The translations under genes were made by a program, and so were the position numbers. Of a DNA stretch of 56,914 nt, positions 3,840 to 47,396 are shown piece after piece. Below the pieces are notes generated by a model. That model was given only the letters and a program-made list of their open reading frames with translations. It ran no database searches and was not told where the DNA came from. The stretch's first letter is position 1, and each line of letters starts with the position of its first letter. The DNA is from an uncultured Gammaproteobacteria bacterium (lineage in GTDB: Bacteria; Patescibacteriota; Microgenomatia; PFEM01; DATLAM01), in assembly GCA_964566925.1 (NCBI GenBank), contig CAZMIZ010000006.1, forward strand, positions 1 to 56,914. Reading direction: 5' to 3'.

Positions 3840-4734
3840 GTTTCATCCTCTCTTCTAAAACCTGATCTTTCTTGAATTCAATTAATTGAAGTGCCTTTAG
3901 ATCGACTCCCTGAAGCGCGGCCCGAGGGATCATTCCGTAGATTTCCGAACCTAAAACTTCAACGCCTCTTTTTTGGGCTTCCTTTTTAATTTTAGCAAAA
4001 ACAACATCCATGTTCGTTTTCTCAAAATCACAAAGATTCATGGAAACTTGAACAAACCCTTGATCTTTAATTGCAAAACCCATCGCCTTGACTGCCGGGA
4101 AGCCGCCATCTTTTTCCCGAATCAGTTTAGCAATTTCTTTAGCTACCTGAACATCCTGGGTATCCAGGTTAACGTTGTAAGCAATCAGAAATTTGCGGGC
4201 GCCGATGACCATCGCTCCAGCGGCGGGGTGCATTTTGCTCGGCCCAAAATCAGGCTTCCGATCTGGATTAGTGACAATTTCTTTTTTTAACCCTTCATAC
4301 TCGCCTTTTCTAACGTTGGCTAAGTTGGCTCGTTCTGGCCGGGTCGCCGCCGCTTCATAAAGATAAACCGGAACCTTTAGCTCCTCGCCAACCTTCTTCC
4401 CTAGGCGCTTGGCTAAAGCCACACACTCCTCCATTGAAACATTGGCCACCGGAATAAAGGGAACCACGTCAGTGGCCCCAATGCGGGGATGTTCACCATG
4501 ATGTTTTTCCATGTCAATTAAGGCCGTTGCTTTTTTGATCATTCCCCAAACCGCCTGGAGAACCGCTTCCGGTTCACCCACTAAAGTTACTAAAGAGCGG
4601 TGATGATCTTTATCCCATTCAACATCAAGGACTTTAACTTTCTCCCGCCCCCGAGCGACATCGGCAATGGCTTTAATAACCTTTTGTTTTCTCCCTTCGG
4701 AGAAATTTGGTACGCATTCAACCAGTTTATCCAT
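3832..4734 (-). CDS. ftcD: Glutamate formiminotransferase / 5-formyl-THF cyclo-ligase substitute
   Basis: LVECVPNFSEGR, DHHRS, HHGEHPRIGATDVVPFIP, GARKFLIAYNVNL. Confidence 0.95.
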   Translation of the reverse strand: MDKLVECVPNFSEGRKQKVIKAIADVARGREKVKVLDVEWDKDHHRSLVTLVGEPEAVLQAVWGMIKKATALIDMEKHHGEHPRIGATDVVPFIPVANVSMEECVALAKRLGKKVGEELKVPVYLYEAAATRPERANLANVRKGEYEGLKKEIVTNPDRKPDFGPSKMHPAAGAMVIGARKFLIAYNVNLDTQDVQVAKEIAKLIREKDGGFPAVKAMGFAIKDQGFVQVSMNLCDFEKTNMDVVFAKIKKEAQKRGVEVLGSEIYGMIPRAALQGVDLKALQLIEFKKDQVLEERMKHD

Positions 4735-4761
4735 TTGGGAAATATTATAACAGAAAGCTTT

Positions 4762-5328
4762 TTACCCCCGATAGACCTGATGACATTTGGCACAAACCGG
4801 AAAATATTCAGCTTCTTTGGTGGAGGCAATTTTGCCGGTTTTGCCGCTTACCCGTTCTGTATGGCTGGCTTTTTTTCCGCACTTCACGCAAATAGCAAAA
4901 AGTTCAATTTTTTCATCCGCCTTTTTAAAAAGATCCAGCGTCACTCCAAACGGCTTTTTGGTGTAGTCATATAAAAGGCCGGTGGCGTAGACATCAATTC
5001 CTTTAGCTAAAAGTTCGGCCACTAGCTTCTTGGCCTTGTCTTTGGGGAAAAAATTGATATTGTCAATAATCACTTTCATCTCGTCAGTAAAAATATATTT
5101 TAAAATCCGCTCCGGCTGATCAGGGTCAATAAAAATCACCGGGAGGGAACGTTCATCATGAGAGTTAGTGTGGCCCATACCGCCGCTACCGGCTACCTCT
5201 GCTTTAAAACAGAGAACGGGGTAACCCAGTCTGGTTAAAACCCGAAAGAGGGTCAAAGCCTTGTTGGTTTTACCAGCAAACATGGGGCCGGCGATAACCG
5301 TCAATCTACCTTTTTTCTTTCTGCCCAT
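4762..5328 (-). CDS. tdk: Thymidine kinase (TK1-type), with DE->DN change in the catalytic motif
   Basis: IAGPMFAGKT P-loop; CVKC...CAKC zinc lasso; IIDNINFF where IDEGQFF is expected. Confidence 0.85.
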   Translation of the reverse strand: MGRKKKGRLTVIAGPMFAGKTNKALTLFRVLTRLGYPVLCFKAEVAGSGGMGHTNSHDERSLPVIFIDPDQPERILKYIFTDEMKVIIDNINFFPKDKAKKLVAELLAKGIDVYATGLLYDYTKKPFGVTLDLFKKADEKIELFAICVKCGKKASHTERVSGKTGKIASTKEAEYFPVCAKCHQVYRG

Positions 5329-13917: not shown

Positions 13918-15876
13918 TCACTTTGGCTTTCGCCAAGAAGCCCAGTTGCACTTCGGCCAGTTGGAGCAACCGTAAAACTGCCTTCCCTTCTTGGTTTTCT
14001 TAATCACCACGTCGCCCCCGCATTTCGGACATTTGACGCCTTCCAGTTTGGGGGTATAAGGGGCAGTGTAATCACATTCCGGAAATCGAGAACAAGATAG
14101 AAATTTACCAAATCTCCCAACTCGGATAACTAATTTACCCTTTTTACATTTCGGACAATTTTCCTCGGTCACCTCAGTCGGCACTTGAACCCTTTCCGCT
14201 ACTGCCGTTACCCCGGATATCTTCTCGTCAAAGGGTTGATAAAAATCCCGAATGACCGGCACCCATTTTACTTCGCCGCGGGCAACGGCGTCTAATTTGT
14301 CCTCCATCTGGGCGGTGAACTCATAATTGACAATGTCTGGAAAATATTCAACCAGAAAATCATTTACCGTTATTCCGAGGGGGGTCGGCTGAAAGCGTCC
14401 CTCAACTTTCTCGACATACTGCCGTCCCTGAATGGTCGAAACAATGGGTGCATAAGTCGATGGCCGGCCAATACCGCGCTCTTCAAGAGCTTTAATCAGC
14501 GTTGCTTCCGAGTATCTCGGCGGCGGTTGGGTAAACTTTTGCTCGGAATTAATTTTAATCAGGTCCAACTCGTCGCCTTTTTCCAGCTCGGGCATCGCTT
14601 CTTCTTTGTTTTGGACCCCACCGTAAATCTTTAGCCAACCATCAAACTTAATTACTTTTCCTTCAGCCATTAAAAGATAAATGTTCTTCTTACCAGCGGC
14701 TTGAACTAAAACCTTGGTTTGATCCCAAATAGCCGCTTTCATCTGGGAAACAATGGCTCTTTTCCAAATTAAATCATAAAGTTTTTCTTCGTCTCTTGTC
14801 CGATGTTTGACGCTTGATGTTTGCTTGGTCGGATCAGTCGGTCTGATTGCCTCGTGAGCCTCTTGAGCTACCTTTGACTTGGTTTTATAAAACAGGGGAT
14901 TCTCCGGGAGATACGGATTACCAAAAGTAGTCTTGATATATTGGCGAATCATCTCGATGGCTTCTTGAGACAGGACAACCGAGTCTGTCCGGTGATAAGT
15001 AATTAAGCCCTTCTCATATAAAGATTGGGCGACACGCATGGTTCTTTTACTAGAAAAGCGGAGAGTTGAAGCCGCTCTCTGTTGAAGGGTTGAGGTGGTA
15101 AAAGGAGGTGATGGCCTCTGCTTAACTTCCTTCTTCTTCACTTCGCCTACTTCATAACCAGCCTTTTTGAGTTCGGTGACAATCTCTTTGGCGGTTACCT
15201 CGTCTTCCACTTTAGCTTTCTGGCCGTTGATTTTTGCCAACTTGGCGAAAAAGCTCGGGACATCCGGCCGCTTCCCCCCCAGATGGCGCCTTAATTCGGT
15301 AATAATCTCCCAATATTCCTCGGGAACAAATTTCTCAATCTCTCTTTCTCGATCAACAATGAGACGAACCGCTACTGACTGAACTCGGCCTGCCGAAAGG
15401 CCGCGCCGAATCTTCCGCCAGAGGAGGGGCGAAAGTTTATAACCTACCAATCGGTCCAAAATCCGTCGGGCTTGTTGGGCATCGACTAATTGAAGATTGA
15501 TTTTGCCAGGTTGAGCCAGGGCTTTTTCAATCGCCGACTTAGTAATTTCATGGAAGACGATTCGGGCAAGATGATCCTCTTTTTTGCCTAATATCGTGGC
15601 CACGTGATAAGCAATCGCTTCTCCCTCCCGATCCGGGTCGGTGGCCAGATAAATCTTCTTGGCCGCTTTAGCCGCTTTTTTCAGCTCACTGACTACCTCT
15701 TTCTTCCCGGCCACCAATAAATAATCTGGCTTAAAATCGTGCTCGACATCCACGCCGAGCTTCTTCTTAGGTAGATCCCGGATATGTCCCATGGTGGAAG
15801 TAATCCGGTAATCGTTGCCCAAGAATCGAGTTAAGGTTTTGGCCTTAGTTGGTGATTCAACGATGATTAAATCCAT
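13918..15876 (-). CDS. topA: DNA topoisomerase I
   Basis: LIIVESPTKAK, ATDPDREGE, SAGRVQS, LITYHRTDS, C-terminal zinc ribbons. Confidence 0.98.
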   Translation of the reverse strand: MDLIIVESPTKAKTLTRFLGNDYRITSTMGHIRDLPKKKLGVDVEHDFKPDYLLVAGKKEVVSELKKAAKAAKKIYLATDPDREGEAIAYHVATILGKKEDHLARIVFHEITKSAIEKALAQPGKINLQLVDAQQARRILDRLVGYKLSPLLWRKIRRGLSAGRVQSVAVRLIVDREREIEKFVPEEYWEIITELRRHLGGKRPDVPSFFAKLAKINGQKAKVEDEVTAKEIVTELKKAGYEVGEVKKKEVKQRPSPPFTTSTLQQRAASTLRFSSKRTMRVAQSLYEKGLITYHRTDSVVLSQEAIEMIRQYIKTTFGNPYLPENPLFYKTKSKVAQEAHEAIRPTDPTKQTSSVKHRTRDEEKLYDLIWKRAIVSQMKAAIWDQTKVLVQAAGKKNIYLLMAEGKVIKFDGWLKIYGGVQNKEEAMPELEKGDELDLIKINSEQKFTQPPPRYSEATLIKALEERGIGRPSTYAPIVSTIQGRQYVEKVEGRFQPTPLGITVNDFLVEYFPDIVNYEFTAQMEDKLDAVARGEVKWVPVIRDFYQPFDEKISGVTAVAERVQVPTEVTEENCPKCKKGKLVIRVGRFGKFLSCSRFPECDYTAPYTPKLEGVKCPKCGGDVVIKKTKKGRQFYGCSNWPKCNWASWRKPK

Positions 15877-15881
15877 AATTT

Positions 15882-15953
15882 AGTAAAGACAGTAACTCAG
15901 TAATTCAGTAACTCAGTAAAGTCAGTAACCCAGTAACTCAGTAAAGTCAGTGA
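15882..15953 (+). repeat. Tandem micro-repeat array, 8-9-nt unit (C)AGTAA(CT/TT/AGT/CC), 9 units
   Basis: AGTAA at 15882, 15891, 15899, 15907, 15915, 15924, 15932, 15940 and AGTGA at 15949. Confidence 0.95.
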
Positions 15954-16325
15954 CTATTTAAATCTACTAACTATCGTAGCAAAAATTTTGGTAAATTCCA
16001 TCGCTTCTTTTCTAAGAGCATTAATTTCCTTCTTTAAATCCGGATTAAGCTCTAAAAGCAATTTTAGCCAATATTCCGTCTCCCTGGATTCTTTTTTGGC
16101 AATTTTGATTTTATGAACAAAGTCTTTAGCGCTTTCTGCTTCACAAGCCTCTCGATAGTTGGCCCCGACCGATGTCCCAGATCGAATAAGCTGAACAATC
16201 AATGGTTTATTAAGAGAATCTTTGGGAAATCTCTGTACCAATCTAAGTATTTTCTTGGCAAACTCTAAAGTTCTCTCAAGAAGTTTTTGATTGGCTTTCT
16301 TTCTGTCAAAGTCCTTCCTCACCAT
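15954..16325 (-). CDS. Four-helix-bundle protein (23S rRNA intervening-sequence protein / Avd-like)
   Basis: QLIRSGTSVGANYREA..AES.KDFVHKIKIAKKESRETEYWL. Confidence 0.92.
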   Translation of the reverse strand: MVRKDFDRKKANQKLLERTLEFAKKILRLVQRFPKDSLNKPLIVQLIRSGTSVGANYREACEAESAKDFVHKIKIAKKESRETEYWLKLLLELNPDLKKEINALRKEAMEFTKIFATIVSRFK

Positions 16326-16343
16326 AATTGTCCTTTATTTTCC

Positions 16344-16391
16344 TTACTCTTCTCTGTTTTTACTGGCTTTACTGGCTTTATTATCTTTACT
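16344..16391 (+). repeat. Micro-repeat array TTTACTGGC x2 plus TTACT units, inverted relative to 15882-15953
   Basis: TTACT at 16344, 16360, 16369, 16387; reverse complement TAAAGCCAGTAAAGCCAGTAAA matches left-array AGTAAAGTCAGTAA. Confidence 0.8.
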
Positions 16392-17499
16392 TATTTATTA
16401 TATAAACCATTCCGCCTAAGTTTTTTACTTTCCCTTTAATTTCCATTAAACTCATTATACTGGCCACTTGACCAGTTTCAAGTCCTGATTCCCGAACAAG
16501 TTGGTCCAAATGTTTTGCTTCGTCCTGAATAAGTGCTAAAAGCCTTTCTTCTTCTGGCGATTCCGGCAAAATTTTTCTTGATTCATATTTTTTAATTCTT
16601 GATTCTAAATTTAATCTCTCCAAAATATCATTAACATTAGAGACTAACTTTGCCCCCATCTTGATCAGATCCGCCGGTGCGGCCGACATTTGACTGGTGA
16701 TCGGCCCCGGAACCGCAAAAACCTCCCGCCCTTGGGCCGCTGCATGAGAGGCGGTAATTTTAGCCCCGCTTCTGGGGGCCCCTTCGGTCACCAAAACACC
16801 TAAAGATAAACCGGAAATAATTCTGTTTCTGGCCGGAAAAAGACCTTTGACTGGCGTCATCCCTAAGGGAAATTCGGAAACCACCGCCCCCTGGCCGGAG
16901 TTAACAATTTTTTCGACCAATCTTAATCTGCCCACCGGTGAGATGTGGTCCAACCCTGAAGCCAAAACACCAACTGTTCTCCCATCCACAGATAAAGCCA
17001 TTTCGTGGGCAACGCTGTCAACTCCATAGGCCAAACCAGAAACAATCGTCATTCCCGCCGCCACCAATTCTGAAACTAAAGCTTCGGTTGCCTGACGACC
17101 ATAACCAGTTATTCTTCTGGTTCCCACCACGGCTAAAGCCAGCTCATCCTCGGGTTTTAACTCTCCTTTTACGTAAAGAACAAATGGTGCATCATCGATC
17201 TTTTTAAGGTTCTCTGGGTAACCATTATCCTCTAAAGTTTTTGCCTTAATTTCGTTTTCACGCAACCGAAGAAAATACGAAGAGAAATCAAAGGATTTCC
17301 GGAATTTCAAAAAGCTTTCAACTAGGTTCGGACTAAGCCCAGCTTTTAACAGCTGTTTCTTATTCGCCCCCCACGCTTTTTTGGCTGAACCAAAATAATT
17401 TCTTAAAAGAGCAAATCTTTTCGGCCCAATCCCCTGGAAAACATTAAACCCCAACCAATAAAGCCTGTCCCGGTCAGATTTTTTTAAGCGCCTTTTCAT
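16387..17499 (-). CDS. dprA: DNA-processing protein DprA
   Basis: LAVVGTR, IVSGLAYGVDS.AH, FPARNRIISGLS, C-terminal winged helix; upstream of topA. Confidence 0.96.
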   Translation of the reverse strand: MKRRLKKSDRDRLYWLGFNVFQGIGPKRFALLRNYFGSAKKAWGANKKQLLKAGLSPNLVESFLKFRKSFDFSSYFLRLRENEIKAKTLEDNGYPENLKKIDDAPFVLYVKGELKPEDELALAVVGTRRITGYGRQATEALVSELVAAGMTIVSGLAYGVDSVAHEMALSVDGRTVGVLASGLDHISPVGRLRLVEKIVNSGQGAVVSEFPLGMTPVKGLFPARNRIISGLSLGVLVTEGAPRSGAKITASHAAAQGREVFAVPGPITSQMSAAPADLIKMGAKLVSNVNDILERLNLESRIKKYESRKILPESPEEERLLALIQDEAKHLDQLVRESGLETGQVASIMSLMEIKGKVKNLGGMVYIINK

Positions 17500-17501
17500 T
17501 T

Positions 17502-19088
17502 CTATCTGGTAAACCAGGCTTCCATCACCTTTTTGACAATCGGGGCGGCAACATAGGCCCCTTCGCCCCCGGCTTCCACCAAAGCGGTAACCACAATCTC
17601 GGGGTCGTCAGCCGGAGCATAAGCGGTTAACCAAGCATGGGTTCGGCCTTCTGGATCAGCAAATTCAGCTGTCCCCGTCTTACAAGCTACCTGAGGCGAG
17701 AACTCAAAAAAAGGAAAAGCGGTCCCTCCGGTTGAACAGGCTTCTTTCATTCCTTCCTTAACTAGTTTTAAAGTCTTTTCTTTAAGCTGGAGGTCCTGAC
17801 AACCACCATTAGTTTCTAGCTTAACTACTTCAGGTGAACACAATTTGCCGTTATTGGCGATCACGCTAGTCATCAGATTGACTTGAAGAGGGGTGGCCAA
17901 TAAATCTGCTTGGCCGATGGCAAAATGATAGGTATTACCTAAAAACCAAGACTCGCCTTTCGCCCTTTCTTTCCACTCCGGATCGGGCACTAAACCCGCC
18001 ACTTCTCCAGGGATATCAATCTCGCTTTTTCTTCCCAAACCAAAAGCCCGAGCCCATTCAGCCAATTTCGTGGCCCCCACCCACTCACCCACTTTATAAA
18101 AAAAGGTGTCGGTGGAACGCTTAATGGCCTGGACTAAACCAATTGCTCCTTCAGTCCGGCCGTACTGATTAAAATACCAATTTCGATAAACATACTCCCC
18201 GATTCTAATTTCACCGGTATCTTCATAAATAGTGTTTTCATCAACCTTTCCTTCTTCGACGCCGGCAACGGCGGTAACGATTTTAAAAGTTGATCCCGGC
18301 GGATAGATGCCGCCAATAGCTCGGTTGAACATCGGCAGAGATTCGTCAGTCAAAATCGCTTCGGTAATCTGATTAGGAAGAAAGGAAGGGCCGGAAATCA
18401 AAACTAAGACCTGGCCGGTTTTCGCTTCGGTCGCCACCACCGCTCCTTTCTGACCGCCTAAGGCCTGGTAGGCGACCTTAGAAAGTTCACCATCAATCGA
18501 TAGATGAAGATCTTTTCCGGAAACAGGCTCAAATTTACCAATTTCCCGGATTTTATTATCTTGGCTGTCCACTTCAAAGATTTCCCCGCCATCTTGACCA
18601 CGCAAAGATTGATCATATTTCTCCTCTACTCCCAGACGTCCCACTAAATCCCCCAATTGGTAGCGGCCAGTTCTAACCTCCTCCTGATTAGCCTCGCCTA
18701 AATAACCCAAAACATGAGCCAAAGCCGATCCATAGACATAATCCCGACCGACATCAACCCGCATTCTTTCTAATTCAGCTCCCTCTTCAGCTTCAATCTT
18801 TAAAGCCTCTTCCCGAGTGATAACCTGATATTCATCTGCTTCTCCTCCAACCTTTAGGCGGTACAAGGGAACATTTCTCACCAAAGCCTTCCCCTGCCAA
18901 TCATAAATTACTCCTCGAGGGGCCGGGTCAATTATTCTTTTGATTCGATTGCCTTCGGCAATGGCTCGATTTTTAGCTCCAAAAATAATTTGGAGTTCAA
19001 AAAGGCGGCCCATTAAAACCAAGAAGCCAAGAATCAAAATCCCATAGAAAAGATAAAGGCGGTTTTTCTTCATCATTGGTGATCTCAA
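17502..19088 (-). CDS. mrdA: Penicillin-binding protein 2
   Basis: PGSTFK (SxxK), RSTD (SxN variant), KTGTAE; after mreCD. Confidence 0.92.
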   Translation of the reverse strand: MRSPMMKKNRLYLFYGILILGFLVLMGRLFELQIIFGAKNRAIAEGNRIKRIIDPAPRGVIYDWQGKALVRNVPLYRLKVGGEADEYQVITREEALKIEAEEGAELERMRVDVGRDYVYGSALAHVLGYLGEANQEEVRTGRYQLGDLVGRLGVEEKYDQSLRGQDGGEIFEVDSQDNKIREIGKFEPVSGKDLHLSIDGELSKVAYQALGGQKGAVVATEAKTGQVLVLISGPSFLPNQITEAILTDESLPMFNRAIGGIYPPGSTFKIVTAVAGVEEGKVDENTIYEDTGEIRIGEYVYRNWYFNQYGRTEGAIGLVQAIKRSTDTFFYKVGEWVGATKLAEWARAFGLGRKSEIDIPGEVAGLVPDPEWKERAKGESWFLGNTYHFAIGQADLLATPLQVNLMTSVIANNGKLCSPEVVKLETNGGCQDLQLKEKTLKLVKEGMKEACSTGGTAFPFFEFSPQVACKTGTAEFADPEGRTHAWLTAYAPADDPEIVVTALVEAGGEGAYVAAPIVKKVMEAWFTR

Positions 19089-20379: not shown

Positions 20380-22977
20380 CTACGGGGCGATTTCTTGCCA
20401 GGTGTAGCTGGCTTGTTGGATTTCAAGCGGTGTGTTAATCCAAAGTTCAGGCGAGAAAATAAAAGTTTCAGCCGGAGTATCTCCATTATCTCCTTCCAGA
20501 TCTCGTCCAAGACTAAATCCTTCCCAGCCGACAAACATCCCTTTGCCGGTGAAAACATTCGCTGAGGACTCAATCTCAATGGTGCCGTCGGCAATGAGAA
20601 TACCTTCTAAAGCCGGGTTAACACCCGCATCGGTGACATCGCCCTCAATGGTAATATCCTCGCCAACGATGAAGGCCAAGAAATTATTATTGGTGCCGAG
20701 ATTAATTCTTTCTTTAATCGTCAAATTGCCAGGAACCAAAATGACCACTTTCTGACCAGAACTGTTGACATTCCAAGAACTCTCAGGAAGACTAAGGTTG
20801 CCGTCACCCTCCACTTTGTAAAACCCATCTAGGGCATTCAAATCATCAATAGAAGGATTCTCACTTAAGGATTCTGGAGAGCTAATCAGGTGATCAAAGT
20901 AGTCATAGCCATAAGTCAAACCCCCATCAGAAGAGTTAGTCAACCAACCCTCTTCTGAGGCGGAATCATTACCAAAACTACAGCTGGTGCCATAGGAAAT
21001 CACTCCCGGTGAATCCCCGTCGCCTACAAGAGAACAATGTTCACCGGCGGGGAGAGGGTTAGAAAGAACCCCCTCGGCGTGAACATCACCATCCTTAGTT
21101 TGGAACCAAGCCCCAATCGTGCTGGTAAGGCCAATATTAACGGTCTTAACATCACCATCGCCGCTCAAAGTAACCGTGGCATTATTATTATCGTCGCCAT
21201 CACAATAATAAGGATCGCTATAACCATCAGGGAAGCCGGTCATCATTACCGTAAGAGGCTCCCCAACCGGTAAATCAGTAAACTGGTAGTCCGGATTAGG
21301 GGTTTGGGTTCCGTAACCAGCAATTTGAACCGTTCCCCCACTAAGGGTATCGCCATCCAAAGGGCAAGACTCACCTGATCCAGTGATATCATAAACCGTT
21401 CCATTAACCGTTCCGGTCGAAGGCTCATTAGGAGTAAAATCAATCGTGTCGGAACAGACCGTACACTCATCGGCTGAACTGGTAATCCCACAAACCTTAA
21501 TCCAGACCTGCAAACTCCGGCTACCAGTCCCGCTACAGTCTCCTTCTCTTCCCTCACAGATATCCCAATTAAAACCATGAAGGGTATCCTCGTCGTAAGT
21601 CGGTGTCCATTCACCTATGTCACCACTACTCCGATCAATTATTTTGGTCCAAGGGCCACTGCTGCTAAGATTGCTTAAAGAAACTCTACCGATCCCCTGG
21701 CTAATGTAGCCCGAGCCCAAGCCACCAATCGAGTTATCAACCGCGGCCACCAAATTTGAACTTTCTTCGGTTACCTCTTCTGTTTCATCCCAGGCACCAG
21801 TTAAGTAAGTATAGTTTCCCTCTGCCCCTTCTGCTCCGTTAACCTTAATCAGAGTAATCTCGATATTATAAATAAGCATCGAGCCGGTCTCCTCGGTGTG
21901 ATAAAAATAAAGGGCTTCGGAGGCGGGCCGAAGATAAACTGTTTTTGAACCAGTCCCTCTAACCTCCTTTAAACTATTATATGGGCTTCCAAAAGAGGCA
22001 CCATGGCGATATAAATTAATTTCAGGCGCCCCATCTAACCTTTTATGATTAAATTCGATCTTAAAAATCAATCTCCCACTAGGAATGTTATTGATAGCTA
22101 AAACCGAGCCTGGATAGAGAATGAAAAAATTACCCTCATAATTTAAATATTTCCGATGATCTGGTGGGGGCGGAGGAGGATCGCCGTCATAGGGACAACC
22201 CCATTTACCGCTTACCGAACAAGTGGCTTTATACCAATCAAGACCTGATGCCCCGGGACAAGCACCACCTGTTGTCTGATAGTTGGGTCGGCTCGGCACA
22301 CCGCTAGGCCTAGTCGAGCAGAAACTACCATTACAGGGCCAACCCGGAACTGATTCCCAATCATTCGTTTGGTTAGAAAAACCAAAGTAACAAACCTGTT
22401 CGGAAGCTCCTAGGTCAAATGGAATCCAGCCATTTTCAAAAGCCTGCCGGCCGGTTCTGGTGATTAATTCCTCATCCACTAAAACCTGATCAGTTTGATT
22501 AGGGTTACTTTCTTGACTGGGAACATAGTTGGCGGTGTTAACCGCAATCCGCTGAGAAAGCCTAATCCCACAATAATCTGGTGGTCGAGGCCCACCGCCT
22601 TTATTATGAACTCCAAAATCATTAGCAAAAAAGGTTTCTTTCCCATCAACCGAAAGATTATAAACATCCACCGGTTCTGGTTGGTAATCAAGCTTGGTAA
22701 TTGTTTCAGGTATTAAGTCTCCTGTCTCATTTTTTACAAAAACCCAATCACCAACCTTTAAATCTTTAACTTCAATAAACGAAGCATCTTCTAAATCCGG
22801 CCCAGGAACCTCTACCTCCTGGGCATGAACCGAACCTAATAATGCAAAACAAAGAACCAAGAACAAAGAACCAAGAACAAACGTTTTCAGTCCTACCTGC
22901 CCGCCGAAGTCTCGGCGAAGGTGGGAGTTTTTAGTTTTAAGTATTAAGTATTTAGTTAATTCGGGCAGTTTTTTCAT
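20380..22977 (-). CDS. Large secreted protein: signal peptide, C-terminal half of a Hint domain, Cys-rich region, CPR-type surface C-terminal domain
   Basis: h-region ending VHA/QE; FIEVKDLKVGD...VYNLSVDGKETFFANDFGVHN; C-term WFQTKDGDVHA...YTWQEIAP. Confidence 0.8.
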   Translation of the reverse strand: MKKLPELTKYLILKTKNSHLRRDFGGQVGLKTFVLGSLFLVLCFALLGSVHAQEVEVPGPDLEDASFIEVKDLKVGDWVFVKNETGDLIPETITKLDYQPEPVDVYNLSVDGKETFFANDFGVHNKGGGPRPPDYCGIRLSQRIAVNTANYVPSQESNPNQTDQVLVDEELITRTGRQAFENGWIPFDLGASEQVCYFGFSNQTNDWESVPGWPCNGSFCSTRPSGVPSRPNYQTTGGACPGASGLDWYKATCSVSGKWGCPYDGDPPPPPPDHRKYLNYEGNFFILYPGSVLAINNIPSGRLIFKIEFNHKRLDGAPEINLYRHGASFGSPYNSLKEVRGTGSKTVYLRPASEALYFYHTEETGSMLIYNIEITLIKVNGAEGAEGNYTYLTGAWDETEEVTEESSNLVAAVDNSIGGLGSGYISQGIGRVSLSNLSSSGPWTKIIDRSSGDIGEWTPTYDEDTLHGFNWDICEGREGDCSGTGSRSLQVWIKVCGITSSADECTVCSDTIDFTPNEPSTGTVNGTVYDITGSGESCPLDGDTLSGGTVQIAGYGTQTPNPDYQFTDLPVGEPLTVMMTGFPDGYSDPYYCDGDDNNNATVTLSGDGDVKTVNIGLTSTIGAWFQTKDGDVHAEGVLSNPLPAGEHCSLVGDGDSPGVISYGTSCSFGNDSASEEGWLTNSSDGGLTYGYDYFDHLISSPESLSENPSIDDLNALDGFYKVEGDGNLSLPESSWNVNSSGQKVVILVPGNLTIKERINLGTNNNFLAFIVGEDITIEGDVTDAGVNPALEGILIADGTIEIESSANVFTGKGMFVGWEGFSLGRDLEGDNGDTPAETFIFSPELWINTPLEIQQASYTWQEIAP
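22851..22957 (+). repeat. Composite repeat inside a coding N-terminus: heptamer array (AAAGAAC/CAAGAAC x4), REP-like palindrome, heptamer array (AGTWTTA)
   Basis: 22851-22878 four heptamers; 22892-22925 CCTACCTGCCCGCCGAAGTCTCGGCGAAGGTGGG; 22933-22953 three heptamers. Confidence 0.85.
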
Positions 22978-22978
22978 T

Positions 22979-23674
22979 TTATCTTAAAATCTCATTTACT
23001 GTCGCCTGCAAATTAGTAATCAATTTATAAGTGAGCGTCTGCGAGAGAATCTCTTTGACTTTATCCAAAACTGTTTCTTGGTTTTTTAGTTTTTCAGTTT
23101 CTCCGTCATTCTTAGCTTTAACGGCTAAGAACGGGTGTTCTCCGGTAACTTTGACTTTCTTCCCACTTTCAGTTTCCAATTCATAATAGCCTTCTCTGGT
23201 ATATTCCAGAATTCCAGAAACCGTATTTTCCTTAATTTCTCCTGTTTCTGGATCAAATGAAGAAACAAGATCACCTTCTTCCAAATCTTTTATTTGGAGT
23301 TTTGGAGTTTTGCCTGCCTTGCCGGCGGGCAGGGAGCTTTCGGTATTTACCTCCGTTTCTCCCGTAAAACATCCGCCGCCGCCGCAACACTGACTGTATT
23401 CGTTCCCGTCATCATCCGCGCATTCTTGATAACTAACAGTTTTTGTGACACCAGGAGGATTACATAAATCAACGCCGCATTCTTGGCAAGGTTCCCAACC
23501 TTCGTCACATAATGACTGTGGACAACCACTCGAAACACTATAACAAGCCAAACAGGTCCCTGGAGGAATCCAGGTATCTCCTGCTAAAACTATTTTAGGC
23601 AGAAGAAATAAAGATAAGATTAAAATGAAAAAAAATCCTAAAAATAACTTTTTAAGATTCATCAGGCTCCTCAT
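22979..23674 (-). CDS. Secreted Cys-rich protein ending in the N-terminal half of a Hint domain
   Basis: Signal peptide ending VLA/GD; GGGG-CFTGETEV...IKDLEEGDLVSSFD...KVTGEHPFL (Hint blocks A and B). Confidence 0.8.
   Translation of the reverse strand: MRSLMNLKKLFLGFFFILILSLFLLPKIVLAGDTWIPPGTCLACYSVSSGCPQSLCDEGWEPCQECGVDLCNPPGVTKTVSYQECADDDGNEYSQCCGGGGCFTGETEVNTESSLPAGKAGKTPKLQIKDLEEGDLVSSFDPETGEIKENTVSGILEYTREGYYELETESGKKVKVTGEHPFLAVKAKNDGETEKLKNQETVLDKVKEILSQTLTYKLITNLQATVNEILR
23313..23333. repeat. REP-like palindrome inserted in frame (encodes LPAGKAG)
   Basis: CCTGCC-TTGCCGGCG-GGCAGG. Confidence 0.65.
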
Positions 23675-36194: not shown

Positions 36195-36265
36195 CAATGA
36201 CAAATTTCTAATGTCTAATTTCTAAATTTTTTAGATCAATTAGTCATTAGGTCAATTAGAAATTG
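36195..36265. repeat. Pair of mutually inverted heptamer arrays with no intervening gene
   Basis: Left CAATGAC AAATTTC TAATGTC TAATTTC TAA; right arm reverse complement CAATTTC TAATTGACC TAATGAC TAATTGATC TAA. Confidence 0.75.
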
Positions 36266-36270
36266 CCCAT

Positions 36271-46384: not shown

Positions 46385-46487
46385 TATTCTCTCTATTAAA
46401 TTAAACGGCTACCCCTATCCTAACTTTCTTGACAAACGAATGTCAAATAACTAGAGTGGATAGTGAAAGTAATTAAGTAATTAATTA

Positions 46488-46919
46488 ATGAAAAAACTGT
46501 TGATCATTGGCCTTCCCCTCTTATTACTTCTTTCTCCTTTTAATTGGGTTTTGGCGGCCAAAAAGAGGCCACCCAGAAGTAGTGGGGAAGGTGCTCCAGT
46601 CCGGGCTTACTACACTCGTGGAGTCCGGGCTTCAATTCGCTTTCGGCCTGATCGACTTGGCTTGCTAGTTAATTTCTCTGGCTTTAGTAATATTGCTTCG
46701 GTCACCTATTCACTCACTTATACTGCCAATGGTATTCCCCAGGGTGTCTCCGGCACGGTTACCGCGGCCACGGCTGGCGAGCAAAGAGAAATTTTGTTCG
46801 GTACCTGCTCAGGTGGAATCTGCCGCTACCATACCAATATCACCAACGCCCGCCTGATTATTGATTCTAAGCTTTATTCGGGCACAATCATCCGCAAACC
46901 CTACCGGATTAAAGTTTGA
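46488..46919 (+). CDS. Secreted basic hypothetical protein
   Basis: Signal peptide; SVTYSLTY...GTCSGGICRYH. Confidence 0.65.
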   Translation: MKKLLIIGLPLLLLLSPFNWVLAAKKRPPRSSGEGAPVRAYYTRGVRASIRFRPDRLGLLVNFSGFSNIASVTYSLTYTANGIPQGVSGTVTAATAGEQREILFGTCSGGICRYHTNITNARLIIDSKLYSGTIIRKPYRIKV

Positions 46920-46934
46920 TTAAATGCTTGTAAC

Positions 46935-46963
46935 TAAAGACCTAAGACTCAATACTTGCGACT
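46935..46963 (+). repeat. Degenerate heptamer array upstream of the second four-helix gene
   Basis: TAAAGACC TAAGACT CAATACT TGCGACT. Confidence 0.6.
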
Positions 46964-46975
46964 AGATAGTGAAAG

Positions 46976-47338
46976 ATGGGGTTTCGGTTTCAGAAGTTTC
47001 CAATTTATAAAGAATTACGTTTATTTGTAAAGGAAATCTATCGCCTTTCCAGGACTTTTCCAAAATCTGAACAATTCGAATTGGGCGCCCAATTAAGGAG
47101 ATCGGCCTCATCAATTCTTCTTAATATTGCTGAAGGCTCTGCCAAAAAGTCTGATGCAGACTTTAATCGCTTTGTTCTCATTGCCATAGGTTCTCTGACA
47201 GAAATAGCTGCCATTCTGGACATTTCTCTAGATCAAAAATACATCACCATTAAGATTCACGGAGAATATATTAAGAGGTGTCAAAGCTTTGCCCGCCGCC
47301 TTTACGGCTTTAGCAGAAAATTGACAAAAAACGGCTAA
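46976..47338 (+). CDS. Four-helix-bundle protein (23S rRNA intervening-sequence protein / Avd-like)
   Basis: FQKFPIYK, FPKSEQFELGAQLRRSASSILLNIAEGS, F..IAIGSLTE. Confidence 0.93.
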   Translation: MGFRFQKFPIYKELRLFVKEIYRLSRTFPKSEQFELGAQLRRSASSILLNIAEGSAKKSDADFNRFVLIAIGSLTEIAAILDISLDQKYITIKIHGEYIKRCQSFARRLYGFSRKLTKNG

Positions 47339-47366
47339 AATTATAAAATTACCCTATATTCCCATT

Positions 47367-47396
47367 CGTATTTTGTATTAAGTATTAGGTATTAAG
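47367..47396 (+). repeat. Heptamer array downstream of the second four-helix gene, inverted relative to 46935-46963
   Basis: CGTATTT TGTATTA AGTATTA GGTATTA. Confidence 0.8.

Follow-up and report, generated by a model that had tools for sequence, protein, structure and literature searches.

The 56,914-nt stretch of DNA analysed here (contig CAZMIZ010000006.1, assembly GCA_964566925.1; 'the window' throughout) comes from a Microgenomates-like bacterium of the Candidate Phyla Radiation (CPR). Between dprA and topA it carries a small gene of the PF05635 family, which is bracketed by two arrays of short tandem repeats. Together these parts form a unit, called a cassette below, that consists of a 5′ tandem array, a PF05635 gene and a 3′ array that is the reverse complement of the first. 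The cassette is read on the minus strand, where the gene order is PBP2 (17502-19088), dprA (16387-17499), a 123-aa open reading frame (ORF1, 15954-16325) and topA (13918-15876). The 510 nt from the dprA stop to the topA ATG (15877-16386, minus strand) are wholly filled by the 5′ array, a leader, the ORF and the 3′ array. The features of the locus, in the order of transcription, are as follows.

16387-17499, minus strand: dprA, the upstream host gene (Pfam DNA_processg_A, 5e-70); the cassette begins at its stop codon
16341-16391, minus strand: 5′ array, in the gene sense GTAAAG-ATAATAAAG-CCAGTAAAG-CCAGTAAAA..GAGTAAGGA; CAGTAAAG-type units that start on the dprA stop codon and in the predicted duplex are paired with the 3′ array
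16326-16340, minus strand: short leader with an AAGGA Shine-Dalgarno-like motif ahead of the ORF ATG
15954-16325, minus strand: PF05635/TIGR02436 four-helix-bundle gene, 123 aa, under purifying selection (Pfam, TIGR, structure model, Foldseek, dN/dS)
15877-15953, minus strand: 3′ array, in the gene sense nine TTACTG-type units (CACTG, TTACTG x7, TTACTA), stopping 5 nt short of the topA ATG
13918-15876, minus strand: topA, the downstream host gene (Pfam); no Shine-Dalgarno motif is evident after the 3′ array

Read on the plus strand, 15882-15953 holds nine units (TAGTAA, seven copies of CAGTAA, and CAGTGA) at a spacing of 8-9 nt, while 16344-16391 reads TTACT, TTTACTGGC twice, TTTATTATC and TTTACT. 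In the gene sense this gives three to four units on the 5′ side and nine on the 3′ side. Tandem Repeats Finder reports a period of 8 with 6.8 copies at 15890-15944 (score 80), a period of 33 at 15882-15944 (score 105), and a period of 9 with 3.7 copies at 16359-16391 (score 45); the scores of 80 and 105 are the highest in the whole window. The two arrays are mutual reverse complements in several registers (15 nt at 93%, 21 nt at 81%). The 100-nt flanks of the gene have seven inverted 7-mers in common and no direct ones, and the energy of the flank duplex lies at z = -3.6 relative to dinucleotide shuffles. An original prediction, made from the sequence before this analysis, had described nine (C)AGTAA-type units opposite TTACT units, reverse-complementary arrays, and a four-helix-bundle gene inserted between dprA and topA; this description, with its count of nine, was correct.

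PF05635 is a very large protein family without a known function; its only studied relative is Avd, an RNA-binding cofactor of a reverse transcriptase in diversity-generating retroelements (DGRs). It also goes by the labels '23S rRNA IVS protein' (IVS, intervening sequence) and 'S23 ribosomal protein', the latter a misnomer. ORF1 matches PF05635 at 3.7e-21 (75.8 bits, cut-off 33.8) and TIGR02436, 'four helix bundle protein', at 6e-27 (94 bits, cut-off 24). An exact-protein look-up of ORF1 returned no record, and viral contigs scanned with the family alignment contained no relatives. The family motif RxxxSxxxNxxE (PMC3936711) appears in ORF1 as R-SGT-S-VGA-N-YR-E, with S52, N56 and E59 unchanged throughout an alignment of 34 sequences. 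Comparison with an 88%-identical homologue at locus L001 gives a dN/dS of 0.16, indicating a functional gene and not a relic.

An AlphaFold2 model of ORF1, built with 34 homologues, has a predicted local distance difference test score of 94.9 and helices at residues 8-30, 39-61, 66-93 and 95-122. The best Foldseek match to this model is 2RLD ('S23 ribosomal protein family'; E = 2e-6, template modelling (TM) score 0.77-0.87), which a sequence profile also matches at 1e-29, and XCC0516 (2GSC) is found as well. Both structures, 2RLD and 2GSC, have five chains, and the ORF1 protein is presumably pentameric. DGR Avd (4DWL and 8UBE) is recovered with weaker scores (TM about 0.7), which bears out the relation to Avd that the original prediction had given as established. 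The Avd model NF033474 is not matched by ORF1, and the second PF05635 gene of the window (ORF2, described below) reaches 20 bits against a cut-off of 80. Avd (bAvd) has a homologous four-helix-bundle fold, and acts as a pentamer, in complex with a structured RNA and with a reverse transcriptase. Unlike in DGRs, no reverse transcriptase and no template or variable repeats occur near the cassette, the neighbours of which are dprA, topA and PBP2.

Inverted arrays across the PF05635 family

Searching metagenomes for peptide motifs of the protein, and for nothing else, gave 80 loci of the family. By eye, nearly every PF05635 gene is preceded by an array of 7-9-nt units and followed by an array of their reverse complements. 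The unit itself varies by locus, and includes AATTAACCT/AATTTCT, AATTTTCA, AATGACGA, AATGAACA and AAAGTCGA, among others. For flank statistics, 73 independent PF05635 loci with full 100-nt flanks were compared with 370 neighbouring ORFs as controls. Three or more inverted 7-mers are common to both flanks at 66 of the 73 PF05635 loci and at 88 of the 370 controls, and ten or more at 50 and 16, respectively; at least five of these 16 high-scoring 'controls' are further PF05635 genes. The median number of inverted shared 7-mers is 15 for the family and 1 for the controls, while that of direct shared 7-mers is 1 in both groups (Mann-Whitney p = 2e-29, Fisher p = 5e-34). The median energy of the flank duplex is -37 kcal/mol, as against -24 for shuffled sequences. 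Inverted flanks are therefore the preferred arrangement in the family as a whole, in keeping with the original prediction. The 5′ arm has a purine bias at CPR loci that is significant but small (0.56 vs 0.49); in cyanobacteria it is more conspicuous on inspection. Family contigs also have numerous hairpins of these array types that lack an ORF.

The same architecture is found in three phyla. On cyanobacterial plasmids, 'four helix bundle protein' genes lie within purine-rich heptamers and their complements (GTCAGGA/TCCTGAC, GGGAGTA/TCCCTAC, GGGTGTA/CTACACC, GGTGACA/TGTCACC and AAGGGAA/TTCCCTT). Some of these copies sit inside cas operons, between cas10 and cmr3 or between cas6 and cas4. The family was earlier reported as CRISPR-associated (PMC3936711, PMC10910872), and bracketed cassettes within cas operons probably explain these reports. 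On plasmid p2 of Azospirillum lipoferum (L164), a 23S rRNA gene (Rfam large-subunit rRNA model, 2537 bits) contains a family member that has no annotation; its flanks, CAGAGGACGGATGACAGAGGACGGAGGACAGAA and TCCGTCCTCTGTCTTCTGTCATCCGTCTTCTGA, form a closing stem (fold z = -9.7).

Parts of this picture were already known, namely the IVS protein with terminal inverted repeats and heptamers in one rRNA IVS, the occurrence of PF05635 genes in cas loci, and paired heptamer or octamer arrays of Xanthomonas, Nostoc and Geobacter that had remained unexplained. What is apparently new is that PF05635 genes outside rRNA are generally bracketed by inverted arrays, with units specific to the clade, and that these three pieces can be linked. 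In the literature covered, which excluded subscription journals, no paper described inverted arrays as typical of PF05635 genes in general, and an earlier description may therefore exist.

Conservation of the unit and distribution of the cassette

Homologues of the ORF1 clade, at 54-88% protein identity, occupy at least five different sites: dprA/topA, SpoIID/bPH_2, a hypothetical gene/L25, topA/mazG and topA/cdd. In all eight members CAGTAA lies upstream (mean 2.9 copies) and TTACTG downstream (mean 5.0); no member has them the other way round, and the two occur together at none of the 72 other family loci. For 80 distinct proteins, the 6-mer similarity of the arrays increases with protein identity (Spearman 0.45, Mantel p = 0.001). 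Among pairs with unrelated outer flanks, the array cosine rises from 0.07 at less than 40% protein identity to 0.47 at more than 70%. Since the unit is clade-specific and accompanies the gene between sites, the arrays are part of the element and not of its target. Further, because non-coding sequence would be randomised at such divergence, it is the unit itself that has been conserved, and not merely its complementarity.

These data bear on a further explanation, that the arrays are neutral microsatellites produced by slippage in AT-rich intergenic DNA that happens to lie beside a small gene. The genome is indeed AT-rich, with many weak tandem repeats, and the second copy in the window is degenerate. 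Chance of this kind is nevertheless hardly credible as an origin of inverted sharing at 15 times the level of controls (p about 1e-29 to 5e-34), of a unit conserved over five sites at 54-88% protein identity, or of an architecture that recurs in three phyla.

At the dprA-topA junction itself, relatives exhibit three states. The full cassette is present in the window, in L001 and in L188. L001, an independent metagenome contig, has the same insertion with the same repeat unit, in four 5′ copies and about five 3′ copies; L188 and L189 have a 71%-identical homologue at this junction. The empty state is represented by L003 and L004, where the dprA TGA overlaps the topA ATG as ATGA (dprA 63-64% and topA 70-73% identical), and by L006 and L009, with a few bases between the two genes. 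A third state, an ORF-less hairpin, occurs in more distant CPR relatives. It is clear in L037 (TTCATAG x3 / CTATGAA x2-3, fold z = -6.7) and probable in L008 and L011, where it is weaker, as is the whole-region fold z-score. The insertion is therefore lacking in some relatives. The two computable checks that the original prediction had set for itself, inverted arrays across the family and empty dprA-topA alleles, thus both came out in its favour. The 80 closest topA loci of species-representative GTDB genomes, none of which has a PF05635 gene within 10 kb, served as empty-site controls. A possible TAAAT duplication at the dprA/topA insertion is indistinguishable from chance in AT-rich sequence.

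Three further observations concern this operon. Between the window and L001, the cassette gene has a dS of 0.36, as against 0.89 for the neighbouring dprA segment (16387-16827), a more than twofold difference that may reflect either a more recent exchange of the cassette or added constraint on its RNA. ORF1-clade members in L166, L176 and the window are linked to the dprA-topA operon at three positions (dprA/topA, topA/mazG and topA/convergent cdd), the outcome of either local hopping or a preference of the clade for this operon. No dprA is present in L002, the closest topA relative (78%), where a spacer of 235 nt (943-1177) separates PBP2 from topA, indicating that dprA itself is variably present in the lineage.

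Judging from this distribution, the cassette is apparently mobile. Two paralogous cassettes in L123, one of them with a nonsense mutation, lie 3.9 kb apart with identical arrays in different surroundings, and no target-site duplication was seen at either copy. A segment of about 40 nt (GAGGTTTTGCAGTTATAC...GGAAGGTAAAT) is found on both sides of a PF05635 cassette in the same contig (3877-3918 and 4406-4447), with six differences; it could be a duplicated target or a part of the element. Directly adjoining the PF05635 cassette, a gene of the GxxExxY / PDDEXK_3 nuclease superfamily (4541-4957; TIGR04256, 7.6e-27) lies within CGCTGAT/ATCAGCG arrays (flanks 4440-4540 and 4958-5060). The bracket may thus carry alternative genes.

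A probable IVS-type cassette in mRNA and its alternatives

The region between dprA and topA is probably a compact cassette of the kind known as an IVS in 23S rRNA, residing here in mRNA. That the family is encoded inside 23S IVSs cut by RNase III, as the original prediction had stated, is borne out by published work (PMC4990558) and by the Azospirillum copy. The IVS of Coxiella has a 28-bp terminal stem with two or three GACAGAT heptamers, the number of which varies among strains, and RNase III cleaves at the point where the first heptamer begins (PMC4990558). The ORF-bearing 23S IVSs of Leptospira and Coxiella burnetii (S23p) resemble the present cassette in their PF05635 gene, in the terminal inverted repeats around it, in the tandem heptamer-type units of their arms with strain-variable copy number, in their sporadic distribution and, as presumed for the cassette, in the absence of a promoter of their own (PMC4990558). 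The host molecule is different, being an mRNA at dprA-topA rather than helix 25 or 45 of rRNA. An Rfam scan of the window found only tRNAs and an L10 leader and no rRNA, and hence the cassette does not lie within either of these 23S rRNA helices. The units are also longer in the window, at 8-9 nt, and the 3′ array of nine units is long.

As an IVS-type element, the cassette would have no promoter of its own and would be transcribed by read-through from the upstream gene. The 5′ neighbour of PF05635 genes is co-directional at 66 of 67 loci, against a background of 85% (p = 2e-4), and the spacers of the cassettes are so short (about 55 and 69 nt) that the arrays fill them; both features are consistent with an element relying on read-through transcription. 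In the transcript, the arrays would pair in any of several registers, and the ORF would form the loop of an imperfect stem about 30-40 bp long. Minimum-free-energy and centroid folds do close the ORF by a predicted flank stem in the window copy, in L001 and in the second copy of the window. For the first cassette, the predicted flank duplex comprises 40 pairs (-32 kcal/mol) and includes an AAGGA motif upstream of the start codon; the AAGGA within GAGUAAGGA of the 5′ array, distinct from that of the leader and farther upstream, is paired in the predicted minimum-energy duplex. The long, register-flexible stem with the ORF as its loop, which the original prediction had envisaged, is supported to this extent by modelling.

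By analogy with the IVSs of Coxiella and Leptospira, RNase III would cut such a stem. The products would be a stem-capped monocistronic ORF RNA and separated dprA and topA segments. Expression of topA, which has lost the ATGA coupling and has no evident Shine-Dalgarno motif, might then require processing, or a stem by which the dprA stop and the topA start come to lie side by side. Tandem arms would make the pairing tolerant of register and could provide repeated sites for protein binding. Complementarity alone would suffice for RNase III, yet the very same unit persists among proteins of 54-88% identity, suggesting that the protein may recognise its own repeats. As the sole factor encoded by the element, it is the most economical candidate reader. 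More speculatively, it may recognise (CAGTAAAG)n / (CTTTACTG)n as RNA or as DNA, for regulation, maintenance or spread.

Several observations count against an IVS-type cassette. The idea that the element inserts between co-transcribed genes stands as a strong tendency at the CPR-type loci (66/67) and fails as a rule, some cyanobacterial copies being antisense to both neighbours (L195). The arrays of L162 are direct and not inverted. At this locus (1260-1960, between cas6 and cas4 on plasmid pPg_01 of Pseudanabaena galeata), (AAAAGCT)x17 lies upstream and (AAAAGCC)x9 downstream in direct orientation, and an inverted partner, (AGCTTTT)n, farther upstream forms a separate ORF-less hairpin. The z-scores of whole-region folds are modest, -2.45 for the first cassette of the window and 0.25 for the second, because the sequence is AT-rich. 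Such scores are weak in AT-rich sequence generally (also in L008, L010 and L011), and k-mer and duplex statistics were relied on instead. Mismatches between the arms comprise 89 G:U and 87 A:C pairs, with no excess of G:U, transversions dominating and register ambiguity limiting power, and pairing at the RNA level is therefore indistinguishable from pairing at the DNA level. The 57-kb window contains no RNase III signature motif, which says little as the rest of the genome was not seen. Lastly, no clear target-site duplication and no recombinase was found, nor was a transposase found nearby.

The lack of a G:U bias is one of the points in favour of a different element, a DNA-level foldback or one resembling MITEs (miniature transposable elements with inverted repeats). 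The arrays would here be terminal inverted repeats that a recombinase from another locus recognises on DNA, in hairpin or cruciform shape, with the PF05635 gene as passenger or accessory and RNA pairing as a by-product. Array hairpins lacking an ORF abound in the same contigs and are present in the window, paralogous copies occupy different sites, the unit travels with the gene, and the same type of bracket surrounds other cargo, the nuclease-type gene of L123. Terminal inverted repeats and dispersed copies, ORF-less ones among them, are hallmarks of MITEs and foldback elements, and both are observed here. Foldback transposons have inverted termini built of short tandem units, as the cassette does. 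REPIN-RAYT systems (repetitive extragenic palindromic (REP) doublets with REP-associated tyrosine transposases) similarly combine a gene flanked by its own cognate inverted repeats with scattered ORF-less inverted doublets. Unlike in REP/RAYT and foldback systems, each PF05635 paralogue has its own unit, in place of one master gene per genome, and no target-site duplication was seen. To our knowledge, no nuclease or transposase chemistry is known for PF05635. The two copies of L123 exhibit neither a transposase nor a target-site duplication, a DNA transposon does not require the co-orientation with the upstream gene or the tight fit between stop and start codons, and the related rRNA IVSs are demonstrably processed as RNA. 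We therefore consider a DNA-level element unlikely, while keeping it as a live rival that is compatible with concurrent RNA excision.

Pairing of the Shine-Dalgarno region in the predicted duplex also fits a regulatory function. The arrays might be operator-like or RNA-binding sites through which the protein regulates its own expression or tunes that of its neighbours, and slippage in copy number would render expression phase-variable. The unit is clade-specific, copy number differs between the window and L001 and among Coxiella strains, and similar paired arrays in Geobacter were taken as regulator sites (PMC2700814). Regulation leaves unexplained why the two sides are strictly reverse-complementary, why the unit is present in some relatives and absent in others, why it relocates as a whole, and why it resides in rRNA helices. 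As a full account of the arrays it is improbable.

If the IVS-type reading is correct, and the PF05635 gene with its co-travelling arrays is a discrete cassette, two things become concrete: a ligand for the protein, in the form of its own repeats, and a process, in which a stem forms and RNase III excises the unit from any host transcript. The classical rRNA IVS would then be one habitat of a general transcript-riding element and not a curiosity of rRNA. This reading would also suggest an origin for several sets of unexplained arrays. Heptamers of the short tandemly repeated repetitive (STRR) type in cyanobacteria and convergent GGGAATC pairs in Xanthomonas (PMC4692102), together with paired arrays of Geobacter metallireducens read as 'global regulator binding sites' (PMC2700814), consist of tandem 7-9-nt units in convergent pairs, intergenic and intra-operon, much like the arms of the cassette. 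Heptamers of this sort are also the ones that enclose 'four helix bundle protein' genes on the cyanobacterial plasmids. Neither publication connects these arrays with PF05635 genes, and the class 3 pairs of Geobacter are about 100 bp apart and hence ORF-less (PMC2700814). PF05635 genes in cas operons would be explained as well, and need not count as CRISPR accessory genes.

A wider, tentative extension, which we regard as possible but doubtful, is that PF05635 genes with inverted arrays form one widespread class of mobile cassette with ORF-less derivatives, in which each clade reads its own 7-9-nt unit in the manner of a transposase-less REP/RAYT system. ORF-bearing and ORF-less rRNA IVSs, STRR-type heptamers, the Xanthomonas and Geobacter arrays, and the 'four helix bundle' genes of cas and other operons might then share a common origin.

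Other features of the window

The window contains a second PF05635 gene and an ORF-less hairpin, and a promoter-like sequence upstream of the first cassette.

46934-46955, plus strand: degenerate 5′ arm of the second cassette, CTAAAGA-CCTAAGA-CTCAATAC; 22 nt, 82% complementary to 47375-47396
46976-47338, plus strand: second PF05635 gene (ORF2), between a hypothetical gene and rpmG
47368-47396, plus strand: 3′ array of the second cassette, GTATTTT-GTATTAA-GTATTAG-GTATTAA
36199-36267, no strand assigned: ORF-less hairpin of AATTTCT/AATGTCT and TTAGGTCAATTAGAAATT arrays, between rpmB (minus) and an M50 peptidase gene (plus); fold z = -3.7
16454-16481, minus strand: promoter-like match TTGAAA-16-TATAAT (11/12) within the dprA 3′ end; a consensus match only, in a region where the number of matches is not above chance

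ORF2 encodes 120 aa, matches PF05635 at 1.4e-29 (102.9 bits) and TIGR02436 at 95.8 bits, and is 24% identical to ORF1. The original prediction had the architecture recurring at 46935-47396 with another repeat unit. The gene and the complementary arms are indeed there, in a weaker form: a clear tandem array exists on the 3′ side only (GTATTAA x3), and the fold encloses the ORF, but with a z of 0.25 and statistics that are not significant. The stretch 46934-47396 is a decayed example of the same architecture. Upstream of it, AAGTAATT, which includes the AGTAA core of the first-cassette unit, is repeated 2.9 times at 46467-46489, immediately ahead of where the hypothetical gene (46488-46919) starts. 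The unit type of the ORF-less hairpin at 36199-36267 is that of PF05635 flanks in many other genomes, and not of the two resident copies.

The promoter-like match at 16454-16481 is of the sigma-70 type and lies about 60 nt upstream of the first cassette; it could drive the cassette and topA without dprA. Elsewhere in the window (20380-23674, minus strand), two adjacent genes encode secreted proteins with Hint/intein-like modules (Pfam Hint 1.9e-8; PT-HINT weak). Their coding sequence contains the short tandem repeats AACAAAG and AAAACTCC, and near 23300-23330 a GC-rich hairpin, CTGCCCGCCGGCAAGGCAGGC, that is apparently inserted in the Hint N-terminal motif.

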